64,000 nucleotides of DNA from Neodothiora populina. Lineage: Eukaryota. Both the position numbers and the translations under genes were made by a program. This document shows, piece after piece, positions 3,293 through 49,810 of this stretch. Position 1 is the stretch's first letter; each line of letters begins with the position of its first letter. Under the pieces are notes generated by a model. It did no database searches. It had not been told where the DNA came from and saw only the letters and a program-made list of their open reading frames with translations. The stretch is from positions 1,860,001 to 1,924,000 of the forward strand of contig NW_027191411.1 in NCBI RefSeq assembly GCF_041146345.1, in the 5' to 3' direction.

Positions 3293-6284
3293 ACTTTCTT
3301 AGACGTGTCAGACGAGGAGTTTGTGTGGTATAGAGTAGTCAGACGAGGTCCCTAGAGCAAGCCACAGATTCGCAAGCACACCGCGTAAGAGTGTACCGCA
3401 CTTTCGGATGCATCAACAAGGATGTCAATTCGACCTCTCAGCGTCGGTGCTCATTCCCCCCTTTGGATGTGCAATTTGCTCGCAGCACGAGTGGAAAGTG
3501 GTCGCAGTGGGTATTGGTAGTGATGACAGTGATATTAATGAAATGTATGAATGCCGGTCGTACTATCGAGCTTTGTTCGCTGACTGAAATGTCGACGTGG
3601 AAAGAGGAAATCAAAGAAAAGCGAGGCGTTTCGAAGTAAGATCCGATGCGACAACTCGGAGCAAAAGGACGAATCGAAATGTGATAACAAATGAAATCGG
3701 GAAAATGTAATGACGATGACCGGTGAAATGGGAGGCCCTTCGGATTGAAGGTATAGATGTGGGATATGGTAATGACAGATGCAACGAGGACGAGGATACA
3801 GAGGAGACAGAGGGGTAGTATTGCTGCGCTGATCCTAGAAAAGCATGGGTTCGACAGGTCCGTCCCCCTCTGAGCAACAAACAGGCGTTTTACGTTTTAC
3901 GATGCCGGAGCTCAGTCGGTCATGGCGTAATCGGCCAGGACCAAAGTTGAGTGAAGAGAAGGAGAGGGTAAAAAGAAACTCCATGCAAGAGCAGCACCCT
4001 CACCAAAATCTAATCTTGCTCCCGCACAGCTCTACGCTGACACGCCAAAGCGGTGACTTCCAAACGCCGTGCCGTAGACAGATTAAAGAGCCAGCTCCTG
4101 AACGATTATGCTTGGACTTGGCATCTATGGATACAGCGATGGGCATGGGTAGGATTGCGGAGCTTCCAACGAGCAAAGTGAAAGGACCCGGCGTATGCAA
4201 CAAAGCATGCAAGTTGCAACCTTTGGCGACGCTGGTATGAGATCGTAGCTCTATTCTGTATAGACTACAAGTAAGCTCCCGCCGCTCCGCCAAACCTTCC
4301 AGGAATCTGGCGCCATAGGGACAGTGCCTCTACTAACCAATAGCACACACTGGGTTCATCCGTACCGAAGCATGCAGAGTTAGAAGAGGCGCGGATCTCC
4401 CGGCGGTACATGTTGAAACGTAGCTGTAAGGTTTATTCGGCGAAGTGTTACAGTGTCGACCCAGCGCTCTTGATGGTAAGGAGCGTGGGGCCGGATCGAC
4501 AGCCTACTGTGAATTCATCAACTCGGTGCGGGACTATCGCCCATTATAGAATGGTCAAGACGATTTTTAATGGGCTACAGCTATTCTCCCCGAATATTCC
4601 GGCCACGGACAAGAAAATAACGAGCTTTGCCTTCGACGCCGTTCCAGATCGCCGGGGAGGATCTCAATACTGGTGTGGATGCTTCTGAAAATACACATAC
4701 CAATGAAGCCATTGCAAAGGGAACGCCTTGGCCATCAGTTTGTTCCCGCCGAAAGAGCACACACTGGAAGTCTGTAACATAGTCCAGGCATCTGTGCAGG
4801 CAGAACAGTGCCGTGGTCGAAGGCGCCCCAGGGAAAAACCCGATGAATCACACCAGCATCAAGCGTACGTGAGAGTCGTGCAGGTCGTACATCGGACAAA
4901 TCCAGAGGTCCTGCGGACTCCGGATGAGGCTGTATGAAACACAAGGAATATTTTGATGCAGGAACAAAGGTTTTTTCGGCACGTGCTATTTGTTGACAGA
5001 TCATGCTGGTCTCGCCGTTACGTGACTACTTACTCTTGGTAGGCCTCCTCGGTAACAAGAGAGAGACCTTCGAGTAGAATGTTCAAATTGCAAAAGTCCA
5101 GAACTTTGAGCGGGATCGGCCGTGACATAGATGGGGTGCAGGTATCATCAGGGCATACTGTACAGAACCTGCATGATGCACGACTGTCGACAGATGGCGG
5201 GGCTGAGATTGTCCGTAGCGCCTTCGGACATGAGTGGTCAGACATTGAGGAGAGTGCGAAGTCTGGAGGTAGGAGGAAGAATAACATGGATTTTGAGGGG
5301 CCGAGCCCGATGTCTGAACGTCGCTTGCCAAGCCGTGAGCCGGCTGCAAGCGAAAGACATCATTGACTATCTAGGCAAGACTGACAGACATTGCTCCAAA
5401 GTCGTCTATTACATTTCACATCATGTTCGACTAAGTATGCTTGTAGCCATTGTGACACAGGCGTGAGTATCTGTTGTATCGTGAGCGTAGATGGTGCCAG
5501 AAATAGCGTCGACGACCGCGGTACGCATGCACATTGATTCCGTCGGTATTGCTGTAGTGCTATTGGATGCAGATCCACCCATGCTTGACTGCCCGGATCT
5601 TCACACTCGCAGGGCTAATGAGAAGATGTGACCTCGTTTCGCCACGAGACTCGAGGGTGTGTATATGCAAGTTGTGCGTATGCCGATTCTGCAAACAGGG
5701 ATATGATTGCTGGTGATTGGCAAGCCACCATGTTGCCATGGTGTTGTTTCTTACTTGTGCATGTTCTTGGCTTCAGATGCTTGTCACGACGCACTTGTGT
5801 CCGGAGTCGGCTGCGATCCCAATCCCCTGCATTAGTTCCTTGTGTGCGGACATCTCTATCTTCGACCAAAGCCACTGCCGTGGACTCACCATGCAAAGTG
5901 CTCACCAATGCTTACAACTTTAGCCAGTCGAGACGCTATGGTGATGTAGACTAAACCATATACTGGGATCGTAACAGCAAGTTCACCATTGAGATCTTAA
6001 ATTATCGTTGTATTCCTAGATAGAAGCACATGCGTACCTACTACCAACAACGGATTTGACAAAAGCCAATCCTGTGACATCACCTATGTAGTTGTCAGAA
6101 AGTTCGGCTGGTGGAAGCCACCTGAAATTTCCCATTATACGAATGCTGAGGAATATAAAGTATTTGCGAGCGAGGTGGCGTTCAAGCGACCTGGTAGACA
6201 TCTCACGCCCCTGTAGACTGGCAAGACCGACAGAGCCGTGTGGGCTGACACCCGTTCAATCTATATTCATATCTCTCACACAAT

Positions 6285-43547: not shown

Positions 43548-45367
43548 GTAGGCTTGTAAAACACAGACTACCTTATGTAACACACCTGATGTATATATCC
43601 TACCTCTTCATATCCGCGCCCTACATCAAAACCCTACCAGAAAGATCTCTGGAGCACAGGTACATAATCAAGAAAAATAAGCCGTCATTCCACGTACGGC
43701 CACAGGCAGCTGAGAACTGGGCATCCCGTCCGCTCTGCCAGACATAAGCAGTTGACCGGCTGATTAGTACTACGGTGGGTGACCACGTGGGAATCCCAGC
43801 TGCTGTACGTTTTGTTTTTCCTTTTTTACCCCTCTATCTTCCTTTCTTCCTGAATTTTGTATCAGTCTTCTGCTTTTCGGCGTTCTCTTATTGCCTGGTT
43901 TTTCCTTTTTTCCTGTTATGCTTCTGCTGGTTGATGTTATACTTTTGTGTGTTTCGTCAGGTGCAATCCACTGGACAGTACCTTGGGTTCATGGTGAATC
44001 CCTCTTTTCTCCATGTGCGGATATGCGGTATAACCGGAACAATCACATATTATAATGCATACAAAAAGCAGGCAATAGATACTCTATGCCAGAGCACGTG
44101 GATGTACAAAATTGCAACAGCAGAGAAACGCAATGAGATTCTCCGGACTGACACCAGGGGAATGGATATGTGGACCCAGCACTGTCTAGGCTCTGTGACC
44201 AACTCTCCTCGACTCCGGGCGAGGTCGCTATTGCTTTTCACCTGTATGTCGCTCGTGCGTGACTTTCCATTCACCACTTGGTCAGCTTCGCGCATTACGA
44301 CAGAGGTGCAGTACAGTAGATCGCGCGCGGACTTTCCTCTTGCAGTACAACTTTATTGAAGGTCTGTCATATTGTATTCTAACAGCATGCACTACTCTGC
44401 CCTACCACACAAGTACAAACCTTGATCTCGAGGCTTATGGCCGAGGTGCCCACATGGACCTGAAGTCGGCTCCCACGGCAGGGAACTCGGCAAGCCCTGT
44501 TGTTCGGTATCCGCCGATAGACTAGACTGACGTCAAAGAAGAAGATCGGGCCGGCGGGGTGTGTCGACGAACACAGCCAGTTGGCCGTCTATCGATTGGT
44601 GCTCTGCCAGATAGGCTGGACAGATAGGCCTGCCTGCTTGGTCTGTAACCTGTGACTAAAGCAACGCTGTCCCCATGTGTAAAAGCAACTCGTTCTTCTT
44701 TCCTCTCTGCTTCGCAAAAGAACGTCGACGATGTTACACGCTTTGGCGACTCCCGCCCTGAGAGCGCAGCCATGCTGTATGTATCGCGGTCGACGCAACA
44801 TCCGCACCGCGTCTGGTGAGCACGCGCCAGCTATTCTGTACCACTCTGGCCCAAAACTACAAGTACCTGCATTCACCAAAGTTCGAGGCAGGGCTTAATC
44901 CCGCCAAGCCCGTGCCTTGCCGCCACCGAGCGGCGGGTCGCGAAACCGTAACACTTACAAACACGGCATAGAGCAGCAGACTTTTCAATTGCCATCACGA
45001 AATTTCTACTGTTTAGTGGGCCAACAAGAGTCACTGCTGCTATACGAGGGCCACCACCGACGTTGGATCTTACGTACATATAACTCATGCTAGGTAGGTC
45101 TTTGTGCGGGTATACTTTCGACTTGAGACAACTCACCAAGTACTCTCAATCTACTTGTCGCTGCATTTCACATCTTTTCCAATCTTCTCACAGACCCTCT
45201 CTTCTCTGCCCATTTTAGTGTGTCGTACTGTGTGATTTGTGTTCTCGGTTCTTTTTGACCTTTCGCTTTTGGTTGATTCGTTGCCTCTCTCTGTTTTGCC
45301 CTTGGTCACTGCATTTCTTCTTATAAATCCTTTCATCATTTGAAGCGGGGAAGAACAAGAGCCCCAT

Positions 45368-45458: not shown

Positions 45459-47154
45459 ATGGCGGACAAGATTGAGATCGGCCCAAAGGTCGACCCCGTC
45501 GAAGAGAAGCCTGAGGATTGGAACTCTCGATCGTCATACGATGGTGAACTCGAGAAGCAAGTACAGAAGGGCACCACGGTGCAACTCAAGCGTCGTCTGC
45601 AATCAAGGCATCTGCAGATGATTGCCATTGGTATGTTTCGACTGCTACACGCCAACTACATCCATTGGTTGACAAGATATGAAAGGTGGTACTATTGGTA
45701 CTGGTCTCTTCATCGGTTCCGGCGAAGCCATCGCCAACTCGGGTCCTGCTGGCGCTCTCATCGCATATGCTTTCGTCGGTACTCTCGTGTATAGCGTCAT
45801 GGTCGCTTTAGGAGAGATGGCCACCTACCTGCCCATCACTGGTGCTTTCACCGCCTACGCTGCTCGCTTTGTCGACCCTAGTCTTGGATTCGCCATGGGC
45901 TGGATCTACTGGTTCTCCTGGGCCATCACTTACGCTCTCGAACTCACTGCGTCCGGACTCATCATCCAGTACTGGCGACCGGACCTCAATGTCGGCATCT
46001 TCATCGGGGTCTTTTGGCTTGTCATTACCTCGATCAACTTCTTGCCCGTCTCGTTTTATGGCGAGGTCGAGTTCTATTTTGCGCTCATAAAGGTCATCAC
46101 CGTTGTGGGTTTCATGATCTTCGCCATCTGCATCGACGCCGGAGTCGGACAGCACGGATACCTCGGATTTCATACTTGGGGCAACCCTGGTGCCTTTGCG
46201 CCTTACCTCGTCGGTGACGGCGCTCTTGCCAAGTTCGTAGGATTCTGGTCTGTCCTCATTCAAGCTGGATTTTCTTACCAGGGAACCGAGCTTGTTGGTA
46301 TCGCCGCTGGTGAGACTGCCAACCCTCGCAAGACGGTGCCTGCTGCTATCAAGAAGACCTTCTACCGTATCTTGTTCTTCTTTGTCCTGACCATTTTCTT
46401 CATTGGTCTTTTGGTACCTTATGATAACCCTCAATTGCTTTCTGGAAACACCGACGCCAGCTCTTCACCTTTCGTCATTGCCGCCAAGCTTGCTGGTGTC
46501 TCTACCGTTCCTGGCTTGATCAATGGTGTCCTTCTCTGTGTCGTTCTCAGCGCTGCCAACTCGAACGTTTACTCTGGATCTCGTATCATTGTCGGTCTTG
46601 CTGATTCCAACTGCGCCCCTGCTTTTTTCAAGAAACAAACCAAGGGTGGTGTTCCGTACTACGCTGTCGCCTTCACAGCAGCGATTGGTCTTTTGGGTTT
46701 CCTGAATGAGAGCTCTGGTGCAAGCACCGTCTTCGACTGGCTAATGAACATGTCCGGTGTTGCAGGATTCATCTCCTGGACATGCATCAACATCTCGCAC
46801 GTTGCATTTATGCGCGCCCTCAAGGCTCGCGGCATCCCTCGCGATTTCCTGCCCTACAAGGCCATCCTGCAGCCATACTTTACCTACTACGGCATCTTCT
46901 TCAACGTCATCATCATCCTCACACAGGGCTTCACCGCCTTCATTCCATGGGACACATCGAGCTTTTTTATTGCTTACGTCTCGCTGATCCTCTTTGTGGT
47001 CTTGTACCTCGGCCACAAGATCGTTTTCAGGACCAAGCTCGTCAACCCCAAAGATGCCGACCTGGACTCTGGCCGTCGCGAGATCGACGAGATGCACTTT
47101 GAGGAAAAGGAGCCGACGACGGCCTGGGGCAAGTTCTGGGCCTGGCTCGGATGA
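45459..47154 (+). CDS. APC/YAT amino-acid permease, Can1/Lyp1-like (probably arginine/lysine); intron 45631-45685
   Basis: [36 protein letters not shown] and FSYQGTELVGIAAGE. YWFSWAITYALEL closely resembles the YWFSWAITFALEL segment of yeast Can1/Lyp1. Confidence 0.92.
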
Positions 47155-47266
47155 TCGAGTGGGATGCTCGAGGTTTTTGTTCGCTGCTTTTGGTTTTTTC
47201 GCTTTTGCTTTTGCTTTTGCTTTGCATACTCTGTTCTTTTTTCTTGGAAGAAAGAACAACTAAAAG

Positions 47267-47334
47267 TTTCCGGCGGACCGGAGATCCTGAGAGCTGGATC
47301 AGGGCCTTTTTCCTAAAAAGGTCAAACACTGAGG
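47267..47334 (+). ncRNA. Structured RNA motif, copy 1 (candidate 3'-UTR cis-regulatory RNA)
   Basis: TTTCCGGCGGACCGGA - stem GATCC/GGATC - AG - stem GGCCTTTTT/AAAAAGGTC - AAACACTGAGG. Confidence 0.7.
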
Positions 47335-47354
47335 TGATACTGAAATATTTCGCA

Positions 47355-47457
47355 TTTCCGGAGGACCGGAGGGCCCTTGTTCGTTTTCTACGAACATCGG
47401 TCCAGGGCGTTTCATGCAACGAAGGAAAAGAAAAACATGAAATGTCAAACACTGAGG
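47355..47457 (+). ncRNA. Structured RNA motif, copy 2
   Basis: TTTCCGGAGGACCGGA - stem GGGCC..TGTTCGT/ACGAACA..GGTCC - AG - stem GGCGTTTCATG/CATGAAATGTC - AAACACTGAGG. Confidence 0.7.
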
Positions 47458-47536
47458 TGACAAAGGAAAGAACGAGGAAAAAGAAGAAAAAGAAGAAAAA
47501 GAAGCTTTTTTTATTCTACATACCATGTACTTTGTT

Positions 47537-47727
47537 TTTCCGGAGGACCGGAGGTTGTTCATTGTCGGTCTATGAGAACCGACGAGGATGACCAGGACAA
47601 GTCCTCTTTCCCTCTCTTAAGTGTCTTCCATCTGTCGTTATTCTCGCCCTTTGTACATTGAAGAGAATTATTGACCTTGGAGCGCAAGAGATGAAAAGAG
47701 GAAAAGAGGAGTTGTCAAACACTGAGG
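47537..47727 (+). ncRNA. Structured RNA motif, copy 3
   Basis: TTTCCGGAGGACCGGA - stem GGTTGTTC..GTCGGT/ACCGAC..GGATGACC - AG - long stem GACAAGTCCTCTTTCCCTCT/AGAGGAAAAGAGGAGTTGTC - AAACACTGAGG. Confidence 0.7.
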
Positions 47728-48818
47728 AAAAAAACCATATACTGCTCGTTAATATCTTATGGAGAGTTGTTTTTTATCGTACAAAAAGCATACACTGTAC
47801 ATATAGATTAGATTTTTTGGATCGAAAGTCTACATTACCTTACTGCTCGCTCACTACTCTTGCTGCTGCTTTCCGAAAAAAGTTCTGAACAGTGTTTGAC
47901 TTTTTTCTTGGATCTCATCTGTGTTCACATCACCTGTTCTTGTCATCATCCTTTTTTCCTTCTCTGGATGTCCTCGAAATGCCTTGCTGCAGTCCTTTGA
48001 GCCCTGACTGATTAATCCGGCTATCGATGGGTCTCGGGCATCTTGACGATCTTATGCTGTCCCTATGCCTCCCACAAGGCGGACTGTACCGTCATCGAAG
48101 TCGCTTCTGCCCCACCCCCCGAAGCCTTCGAGCTTGCCTTGCGCGGTGTCTCTGTGCGGGGTCTTGCCTGTCTCTGGTGCCCAAGTACACGTCATCACAT
48201 CCAGCGTCGCCAAAGGCTCAGCACTCCTGCAAAGAATAAGCCAGGCGCGAGCTTGATGCCTGACCCCCCCTTGACTGGAATTCTGCGAGCTTCGGATGGT
48301 GTCTGGTTCTCTCAAGGTAAAAATTCTGCAGGAGGCGGCCAGATAGTCAATGTCGGTTGAAATGGCGGGGTTGGACCAGTGGTACCTTAGCTTGGCCCCC
48401 TGTGACTTATGCGTCGCTGTTGCAGCGTCATTAGTGATCTTTCGTGGGTGGATCATTTGGGTTGGATCAAGCATAGCTCTTTAGTAAGGTAAGTAGTCGA
48501 TGATTAAGCCTCGGCTAGTGCGGGGTTGGTTGTGTGAGGCGAGTAAACAGAACTTGTTCTAATCACTTATCGAGACTCCCTCCATAGTAGGTGAGTCATG
48601 TTACGGTTCAACAATCCTGCGGCAGGCTTATTATATTGATAACAACAGTCAAGCGACCCGTTGAGTGAACACTTTGGTATAAGATGTTCAAGTTCGCAGC
48701 CACTCTTTCTTAATAGCTACAATAGAGGATATGTATTTGTATTCACTTAGCTTAGTTGCGTGGAAACCTACCTTACTTCGCCGTCTTGTATCCAACACCC
48801 AACATTGAGCATAATAGC

Positions 48819-49810
48819 ATGTCCACCCAACTCGACGCCGCCTCGATCGCGCGCACCTCTCTACATGACCCCACCCACTTCGACATCCAGCACTCGCAGA
48901 CCCTTCACCGCCTCGAGCTCCTGCGGCACTGGGATATTTCTACCGGCGCCAAGGTGCTAGAACTGGGATGCGGGCAGGGAGACTGCACGACTGTGCTTGC
49001 CTCTGCTGTTGGCGAGCAGGGGAGGGTGGTAGCGGTCGATCCAGCGGGACTGGATTATGGTGAGTCTTTTTTTTCGCCTTCTCTGTACTCTGCTGCGTGT
49101 CACACCTGGCGGGTGGTGAGAGCGGAGAAGCAGCCGACTGATAAATGGCTTATCCTGCAGGTGCCCCGTATACTCTCGGCCAAGCACAGAATCACATTTC
49201 TCAAGGTCCGCTAGGTAGAAGGATCACGTGGGTGCAATCATCGCCCTTGGACTACCTTTCCTCTCTCTCTTCCACATCTCCCGTCAGCGACAGCAAAACC
49301 TGCGACGCAACAGTGCTCGCCCACTGCCTGTGGTACTTCTCCTCCCCCTCACTGATCCTCTCCACCTTCCGAGCCATCAAGCAGCATAGCAGGCGTCTCC
49401 TACTTGCTGAGTGGTCATTAGTAGCGACGCACCCGTCCGCCCAGCCTCACGTGTTAGCGACGCTCACTCAGGCAGCGCTCGAGTGCCGCAAGCCCGCGGG
49501 CAGCAGCGTCTCGAATGTCCGCACGGTGCTGAGTCCAAAGCGGCTTACCGAGCTGGCTCTGGCTGCCGGGTGGCAGCTAGAGAGCGAGACACGTGTGCAA
49601 GGTGGCGAGGGGCTGTTGGACGGACAGTGGGAGGTCTCTGCTTGTCTTTCTTCTTCTTTCGAAGGGGAAGTGCAGGAGCAAGTGAGTGATGAGCGGGAAC
49701 GGGCGATGGTTCTCGCGCTGAGGGATGCATGTGAGGCAAGCTTGGAGGTTGTACAGGAGGGTCGCAAAGGGGTCAGGGCGATGGATGTCTGGGTTGCTGG
49801 TTTTGTCTGA
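48819..49810 (+). CDS. Class I SAM-dependent methyltransferase; intron 49060-49160
   Basis: Motif I VLELGCGQGDCT, VVAVDP, spliced LDYGAPYTLGQAQ, and VLAHCLWYF. Confidence 0.88.

Follow-up and report, generated by a model that had tools for sequence, protein, structure and literature searches.

Three tandem copies of a candidate structured RNA element behind a basic amino-acid permease gene of Neodothiora populina

The array and its units

The stretch of DNA analysed here (the window, 64 kb of the genome of the fungus Neodothiora populina) carries a gene for an amino-acid permease and, behind its stop codon and on the same strand, three tandem units that share one architecture. The array spans 112-573 nucleotides (nt) behind the stop codon, and each unit is built from a fixed hairpin (hairpin A), two hairpins of variable length (P2 and P3) and a fixed tail. 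The permease and the units are located as follows:

45679..47154, + strand, last long open reading frame (ORF) of an amino-acid permease, assigned to the CAN1/LYP1 type from the names of its relatives and ending with the stop codon 47152-47154
47267..47334, + strand, unit 1 (68 nt): hairpin A 47269-47282, P2 47283-47300, AG, P3 47303-47323, tail 47324-47334
47355..47457, + strand, unit 2 (103 nt): hairpin A 47357-47370, P2 47371-47403, AG, P3 47406-47446, tail 47447-47457
47537..47727, + strand, unit 3 (191 nt): hairpin A 47539-47552, P2 47553-47593, AG, P3 47596-47716, tail 47717-47727

The permease ORF harbors the Pfam domain AA_permease (E 1.8e-139) and is 100% identical to a protein of N. 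populina (Dothideomycetes), and 72-90% identical to the other 119 proteins listed. The names of these relatives are arginine permease CAN1, lysine permease, generic amino-acid permease or transporter and hypothetical protein, with about half of them nameless. As some relatives are annotated as arginine or lysine permeases, the term basic amino-acid permease, already proposed in an earlier note on this DNA, is reasonable by annotation.

All three units have in common a 17-nt block at the 5′ end and a 14-nt block at the 3′ end, and the sole mismatch in these blocks falls on the first loop base of the 5′ hairpin, which is C in unit 1 and A in units 2 and 3. The earlier note had described three units with a single architecture at these coordinates, flanked by blocks that are alike but for one loop base, and it was exact on both points. 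With up to two mismatches allowed, the 5′ block TTTCCGGNGGACCGGAG occurs at three sites in the window, all of them exact and all on the + strand, against 0.06 expected, and a count of three was reached in 0 of 100 shuffles. The 3′ block GTCAAACACTGAGG is present in three exact copies, each of them 3′ of a 5′ block, and an additional match with two mismatches, at position 5237, is at chance level. As direct repeats, units 1 and 2 agree for three bases beyond the 3′ block, and units 2 and 3 for one base beyond the 5′ block.

Neither a pattern search that tolerated 3-4 mismatches nor a covariance model built from units 1 and 2, run with its filters off and on both strands, found a fourth unit in the window. 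This model recovers unit 3 as two partial matches only (23.7 and 12.2 bits), and its remaining eight matches in the window have E-values of 0.92-8.6. Complementarity between the unit sequences and the rest of the window, counted in 12-mers, is at chance level (5 observed, 3.45 in shuffles). A coding repeat was considered and rejected, since neither unit spacing (88 and 182 nt) is divisible by three. Contigs from two DNA runs, both of one sample and one study, show no base differences across the array (46900-48300 compared) and differ only by single-base length changes at 47901, 48115 and 48264. An exact 13-mer is common to the permease coding region (46586-46598) and the 5′ strand of P2 in unit 3 (47559-47571, + strand).

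Sequence collections beyond the window were also scanned. The 5′ block was found at no fewer than 118 metagenome loci and at least 120 prokaryote loci, and the 3′ block at at least 120 viral loci; both blocks lie within 450 nt of each other at 0 of the 358 loci listed, and, these collections being poor in fungi, this null scan says nothing on the distribution of the unit among fungi. Two AT-rich metagenome matches to the 5′ block look bacterial by sequence. In the full text of the literature, the matches listed for the block sequences are all to unrelated primers, and the available parts of two surveys of fungal structured RNAs (PMC5640933 and PMC8216456) describe no motif that is tandem or linked to a permease, the words “permease” and “tandem” having 0 occurrences each.

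Folding, pairing and strand

In the minimum free energy (MFE) folds, all three units adopt the same chain, which consists of two unpaired U residues, hairpin A, P2, the dinucleotide AG, P3 and the unpaired tail AAACACUGAGG. Hairpin A is 14 nt long, with 5 base pairs (bp; U-A, C-G, C-G, G-C, G-C) and a 4-nt loop, NGGA. It is joined to P2 by a linker of 0 nt in every unit, and P2 is joined to P3 by AG. P2 measures 18, 33 and 41 nt, and P3 21, 41 and 121 nt, in units 1, 2 and 3, respectively. The first pair of P2 is fixed as G-C, and the base of P3 is made of G-C, G.U and C-G in units 1 and 2 and of G-C, A-U and C-G in unit 3. It had been claimed that P2 and P3 pair in every copy, which is borne out by the recurrence of the same hairpin chain in all three folds, and that a G.U pair is exchanged for A-U at the base of P3, which is confirmed when units 1 and 2 are set against unit 3. 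When all 806 nt behind the permease are folded together, every unit retains P2 and P3, and units 2 and 3 retain hairpin A as well.

A MAFFT alignment of units 1 and 2 over the full length of unit 1 has identical bases at 33 of 34 block positions and at 20 of 37 interior positions, the latter figure being at odds with the earlier claim that the sequences of P2 and P3 are almost wholly different. The insertions of 15 and 20 nt in unit 2 fall exactly in the loops of P2 and P3. Among the 12 basal pairs of P2 and P3 compared between these two units, three have had both partners exchanged without loss of pairing (A-U to G-C, U-A to G.U and C-G to G.U) and none is broken, and further exchanges, for instance U-A to A-U, are seen in unit 3. 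The interior has therefore diverged to about one difference in two while the blocks are unchanged, and the retention of blocks and pairing is the pattern that would be expected under selection on both of them.

For the units with short flanks, comparison with dinucleotide shuffles gives folding z-scores of -1.40, -3.80 and -4.46 for the + strand and of -0.77, -1.88 and -3.05 for the − strand; the score of unit 1 is not significant alone, and that of unit 3 is inflated because its P3 is mostly polypyrimidine against polypurine, a kind of run for which shuffling does not control. The MFE values are likewise better on the + strand in all three units (-23.2, -37.4 and -71.7 kcal/mol, as compared with -19.4, -28.4 and -61.5 kcal/mol on the − strand). 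The basal pairs adjacent to the linkers rely on G.U on the + strand and are lost in the − strand folds. The earlier argument that many G.U pairs work only on the mRNA strand is nevertheless weaker than it was put, as the asymmetry in the pairs themselves is modest, with G.U accounting for 12 of 109 pairs on the + strand and 9 of 104 on the − strand.

Known RNA families and class features

An Rfam cmscan of positions 46800-48300 at E ≤10 returned 14 matches, all of them far under their gathering scores and none of them to a riboswitch or a ribozyme, and at gathering score the whole window contains 5S rRNA only. The earlier note, which did not recognise the units as a known family, agrees with this result. 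No family of small nucleolar RNAs (snoRNAs) matches the + strand units at E ≤10. As for the small ribozyme classes (hammerhead, HDV including its fungal variant, twister, twister-sister, pistol, hatchet, hairpin and VS), there is neither a covariance-model match nor a long-range helix in the units; the features of the fungal HDV variant were taken from the available part of PMC5640933 (section 7).

A closing helix, P1, is absent from the units. At best three A-U pairs could be formed at this place, and they are used in one of the three MFE folds; a 4-bp GUUU/AAAC helix is found in unit 3 only. Without a closing helix, the conserved bases are not the junction nucleotides of a closed multi-helix junction, contrary to what had been suggested earlier. 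By reading, no complement of the tail or of the NGGA loop that could form a pseudoknot was seen in the loops of P2 and P3.

The features of several other classes are present in part or not at all. The C box of box C/D snoRNAs, RUGAUGA (consensus as given in the available part of PMC5640933), is missing, its place in the 5′ block being taken by CGGCGGA in unit 1 and by CGGAGGA in the other two; each of the three tails contains CUGA, and a convincing terminal stem (UUUUUCC/GGAAAAA) exists in unit 3 only. For a box H/ACA RNA, the hinge is merely AG and the stems of units 1 and 2 are continuous, without pockets; ACA occurs in the unit tail. The units begin with TTTCC and end with CTGAGG, have no consistent GT...YAG frame on either strand and sit behind the stop codon, outside any ORF; as there are no splice signals on either strand, they are not introner-like elements. 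Nor do they resemble terminal-inverted-repeat transposons or miniature inverted-repeat transposable elements, given that the 5′ and 3′ blocks are not complementary and that the flanking repeats described below are not significant; the 3′ block has its sole inverted match at 47890, a site beyond the units.

Surroundings of the array

Three further features lie between or beyond the units:

47461..47512, + strand, purine-rich GAA/A-rich tract (45 nt, 47461-47505) and then T7, after unit 2
47890..47906, + strand, partial copy, inverted, that matches the 3′ block together with the 3′ strand of P3 in unit 1, 165 nt beyond unit 3
47876..47957, − strand, box C/D snoRNA-like sequence (82 nt) that holds the inverted copy of the 3′ block

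An A7 run (47728-47734) follows unit 3, so that A-rich sequence trails two of the three units. On the − strand, 47461-47512 reads as a GTATGT donor-like site, a long pyrimidine tract and CAG at the unit border, splice-like signals that do not recur at the other units. A direct repeat (47522-47531 and 47734-47743, + strand) that matches at 9 of 10 positions surrounds unit 3 together with its A7 run and resembles a target-site duplication; it is not significant, being equalled in 230 of 2000 shuffles. The best repeat at unit 1 has 10 nt and one mismatch (66 of 2000 shuffles), with its right copy within unit 2 (47378-47387), and the best match of unit 2 was equalled in 1983 of 2000 shuffles. An exact 13-nt direct repeat, CTTTTTTCTTGGA, flanks the whole array at 47236-47248 and 47900-47912 (+ strand), its second copy overlapping the inverted copy of the 3′ block; it may represent the border of a rearrangement or insertion, or low-complexity chance.

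The inverted copy at 47890-47906 comprises 17 nt and, with one change, is 94% complementary to 47315-47331; against the block itself the match is 11/11 in all units. The snoRNA-like sequence around it combines a C box without mismatch, AUGAUGA (47949-47943), with a terminal stem of 7 bp (47957-47951 paired to 47882-47876), reads CAGA at the position of the D box (47887-47884) and carries GUCAAACACUG (47900-47890), as do the units. The snR67 model matches it weakly, with 19.3 bits against a gathering score of 55 and an E-value of 0.044 in 161 nt or 0.41 in 1.5 kb. Judging from these motifs, 47876-47957 could be a decayed or atypical snoRNA of the snR67/CD49 type, and the unit tail may derive from the guide region of a snoRNA of this type, or imitate it.

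The next gene on the + strand lies about 1.1 kb past the array and encodes a methyltransferase (likely start codon near 48819), after which comes a 2OG-Fe(II) oxygenase gene; the genes on either side of the array are thus both on the + strand. The gap between permease and methyltransferase amounts to 1.67 kb and has no ORF with a homologue inside, and the ORF at 48055-48474 on the − strand has neither a homologue nor a Pfam domain. Within this AT-richer intergenic region, a GC-richer stretch (47900-48500, 0.53-0.58) has long ORFs in either orientation; it could represent an unannotated RNA, or belong to the methyltransferase gene as its promoter or a long 5′ untranslated region (UTR). Further away, a dispersed, single 5S rRNA gene (43692-43811, + strand, 79.2 bits, E 3.8e-15) is located 3.4 kb upstream of the array, and ARAGORN found no tRNA in the window.

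A proposed modular element at the 3′ end of the permease transcript

The reading favoured here, to which a probability of only about 0.35 is assigned, proposes that the three units are copies of one modular structured RNA element of the + strand that would act on the 3′ end of the permease transcript. A trans factor would bind its fixed hairpin and tail, and P2 and P3 would be tolerated as spacers. The functional parts would be the invariant ones, namely the 5-bp hairpin UCCGG-NGGA-CCGGA, the first pair of P2, the AG linker, the three basal pairs of P3 (GRC/GUC) and the single-stranded tail AAACACUGAGG, whereas P2 and P3 would serve as structural spacers. Since each of the latter folds on itself, hairpin A and the tail would be kept adjacent at any insert length (18-41 and 21-121 nt), so that together they could form a composite docking site for the trans factor, either an RNA-binding protein or a complementary RNA, and the presence of three copies would raise its occupancy. 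As the array lies 112-573 nt past the stop codon and about 1.1 kb before the next + strand gene, its action would most likely be in cis on the permease transcript, affecting its stability, the formation of its 3′ end or termination before the next gene. The alternative of a protein-binding element, raised in the earlier note, comes close to this proposal, yet is itself a presumption.

In favor of the modular element, the order of the helices and the linkers (0 nt and AG) are the same in the three units despite 3- to 6-fold differences in length, the blocks are far better kept than the interior and their counts are far above chance, and pairing is kept through two-sided changes. The + strand has the better MFE values and z-scores, both neighbouring genes are on this strand, and no Rfam family explains the units. 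The element matches no described family, although the general design, in which structured recognition modules are repeated behind an uptake gene, has precedents.

Several points weigh against it. The RNA nature of the units, the strand, the factor and the effect on the permease are what we infer, and the trans factor has no known candidate. The comparison of pairs is based on three paralogous copies from one genome, so that a covariation statistic would have no meaning here. In units 1 and 3, P3 pairs polypyrimidine with polypurine, and as the locus is rich in such tracts, some of the pairing may stem from low complexity. An A-rich stretch directly 5′ of unit 1 could be the poly(A) site of the permease, and such a site, if real, would place the units outside the mature mRNA. 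Finally, the A-run and the 9/10 repeat at unit 3, together with the inverted copy 165 nt downstream, fit mobility or rearrangement at the DNA level.

Among the precedents, the iron-responsive elements form arrays of protein-binding hairpins in the 3′ UTR of the transferrin-receptor mRNA. Like the units, they are several modules behind an uptake gene, with few fixed bases on stems of free sequence, and by this analogy a bound factor that sets the fate of the mRNA would be the most likely mechanism for the units as well. The defining loop and bulge features of the iron-responsive element are not in the units, which instead have three hairpins and an 11-nt single-stranded tail per module, and ascomycetes are not known to use the iron-responsive element system. 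The multi-hairpin decoy RNAs of the CsrB/RsmZ type, which are bacterial, similarly repeat a short hairpin with a GGA loop in one RNA. In the units, unlike in these decoys, the hairpin is always coupled to two more hairpins and a fixed tail, and the protein family on which the decoys depend has no known fungal counterpart.

A further proposal, which we regard as rather improbable, holds that the units are founding members of a new fungal class of catalytic or sensing RNA, either a small self-cleaving ribozyme or a switch triggered by a ligand or protein. Its core would be the invariant hairpin, AG and the AAACACUGAGG tail, and in its three copies it would set both the 3′ end and the lifetime of the permease transcript and shield the next gene from read-through.

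Alternative explanations

It could also be argued that the array arose from a short element, mobile or retroposed and non-autonomous, or from a retroposed small RNA, of which each unit would be a copy; the termini would have been kept for mobilisation and the interior would have been free to change, without a function for the host, new copies having landed beside older ones, for example in their A-rich tails. This is unlikely, yet it accounts for a number of observations. Non-autonomous elements typically combine conserved ends with an interior that varies, A-rich sequence lies behind two of the three units (47461-47505 and the A7 run), unit 3 with its A-run sits between the copies of the 9/10 repeat, and the exact 13-nt repeat at 47236-47248 and 47900-47912 lies outside the array. 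The terminal hairpins of mobile elements are normally constant within a family, and here the hairpins differ between copies. Moreover, the repeat at unit 3 is met as often as stated above in shuffled sequence, units 1 and 2 have no repeat in flanking position, the 3′ block is not an inverted repeat of the 5′ block, neither the pattern search nor the unfiltered covariance model found another copy in the 64 kb, and three independent insertions within 460 nt would be needed. The Dothideomycetes do contain introner-like elements, described in the available parts of PMC3609843 and PMC4457414, which, like the units, are short and multi-copy in this fungal class and combine a selected, stable secondary structure (PMC3609843) with fast changes in length; they are, unlike the units, spliceosomal introns inside genes, with donor, branch and acceptor sites. 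Because the inverted partial copy of the 3′ block is found in the C/D-like sequence (47957-47876, − strand), 165 nt away on the other strand, a snoRNA origin was considered as well, in which the units would be decayed duplicates of the snR67/CD49 type or would form an atypical family that has retained part of a guide and a D-box-like CUGA; this is judged quite doubtful. The 3′ block has GUCAAACACUG in common with the C/D-like sequence (the shared 11-mer) and CAAACACUGA in common with the Rfam consensus of snR67 (RF01177), 10 nt of its guide region. For CD49 of N. crassa, the equivalent of snR67, the available part of PMC2780460 gives the D guide as ACACUGAAAAUC before CUGA, and prints the D guide for 26S-Um2682 as 5′-ACACUGAAAAUCCUGA-3′ (supplementary files 1 and 4), so that the 7 nt ACACUGA are common to the 3′ block and the start of this guide. 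The tail has CUGA near its 3′ end, followed by GG, and the 5′ block has CC followed by GGAGGA, which retains both GA steps of RUGAUGA, and the flanks of unit 3 (UUUUUCC/GGAAAAA) could form a terminal stem. However, the C box is in no unit and the first GA is GC in unit 1, the + strand units match no snoRNA covariance model at E ≤10, and the shared letters belong to the guide, and not to the D box, in both snR67 and CD49. The interiors of the units are closed hairpins instead of free guides, hairpin A has a second half that never varies and is complementary to its first half, which a C/D reading leaves unexplained, and even the − strand candidate lacks four guide positions of the consensus, has CAGA for CUGA and scores far below the gathering threshold. 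The array might alternatively be a set of protein-binding sites at the DNA level, for instance for a zinc-cluster factor, tripled in an upstream or terminator-side control region of a neighbouring gene, which is distinctly improbable. Read as DNA, the 5′ block is perfectly palindromic, its two inverted CGG/CCG triplets being separated by 4 bases, inverted CGG/CCG half-site pairs are of the kind bound by fungal zinc-cluster factors, and the array is placed in the 1.67-kb gene-free stretch upstream of the methyltransferase and 2OG-Fe(II) oxygenase genes. Binding to DNA leaves unexplained why two self-complementary hairpins with the same 0-nt and AG linkers recur in all three units, why changes on two sides preserve pairing and why the + strand has an advantage through its G.U pairs.

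The two remaining explanations ascribe an activity to the RNA itself. The earlier note interpreted the array as a tandem riboswitch that would sense arginine, lysine or a related metabolite and control the permease mRNA, which we consider highly improbable. Parts of its argument stand: the units look like structured RNA, the + strand is favored, no known family gives them another identity that would rule a riboswitch out, and the gene context fits, several of the named relatives of the permease being called arginine or lysine permeases. The combination of conserved blocks, variable stems and tandem copies near a gene of related metabolism recalls the tandem aptamers of glycine riboswitches and the eukaryotic thiamine pyrophosphate (TPP) riboswitch. 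Unlike these, the units have no Rfam match, no closing P1, no multi-helix junction or pseudoknot to hold a ligand and no recognisable expression platform; they are open chains of local hairpins in which no invariant element is larger than a simple hairpin of 5 bp with a 4-nt loop, and the aptamer part of the claim is thus not supported by the predicted anatomy of the units. TPP is the sole eukaryotic riboswitch class named in the available part of PMC8216456, which keeps the prior low, and the precedent of GLY1 and MET13 also counts against a riboswitch, as these candidates from fungal 3′ UTRs had better comparative support and the tests described there gave evidence against them. A self-cleaving or processing RNA of a new class, with an invariant core and peripheral P2 and P3, whose cleavage would aid termination of the permease transcript or free RNA fragments, is very unlikely too. 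About 33 invariant positions around two free stems, in tandem copies, have the general look of a small ribozyme, a site between two genes of the same strand would suit an aid to termination, and fungal genomes hold many unannotated ribozyme variants according to the available part of PMC5640933 (section 7). Nevertheless, the HDV-type nested double pseudoknot, including that of the fungal variant described in the same section, cannot be formed by the units. No Rfam ribozyme family matches at E ≤10, and all helices are local hairpins, with no long-range helix or pseudoknot for a core.

Significance

Among eukaryotes, the known families of cis-acting structured RNAs that lie outside introns are few, and a single riboswitch class is known. 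The array is real and unusual: 33 invariant positions, with stems that vary up to six-fold in length, occurring three times behind a nutrient-uptake gene, are the type of signature that led to new classes of bacterial RNA. If the units are a short mobile element, they would represent a new family of small elements with hairpin-dependent mobilisation, a case relevant to the spread of structured multi-copy elements, introner-like elements included, within this class of fungi. If they are transcribed and conserved in relatives, they would provide a tractable new regulatory element in the Dothideomycetes, made of RNA and protein or of RNA only.

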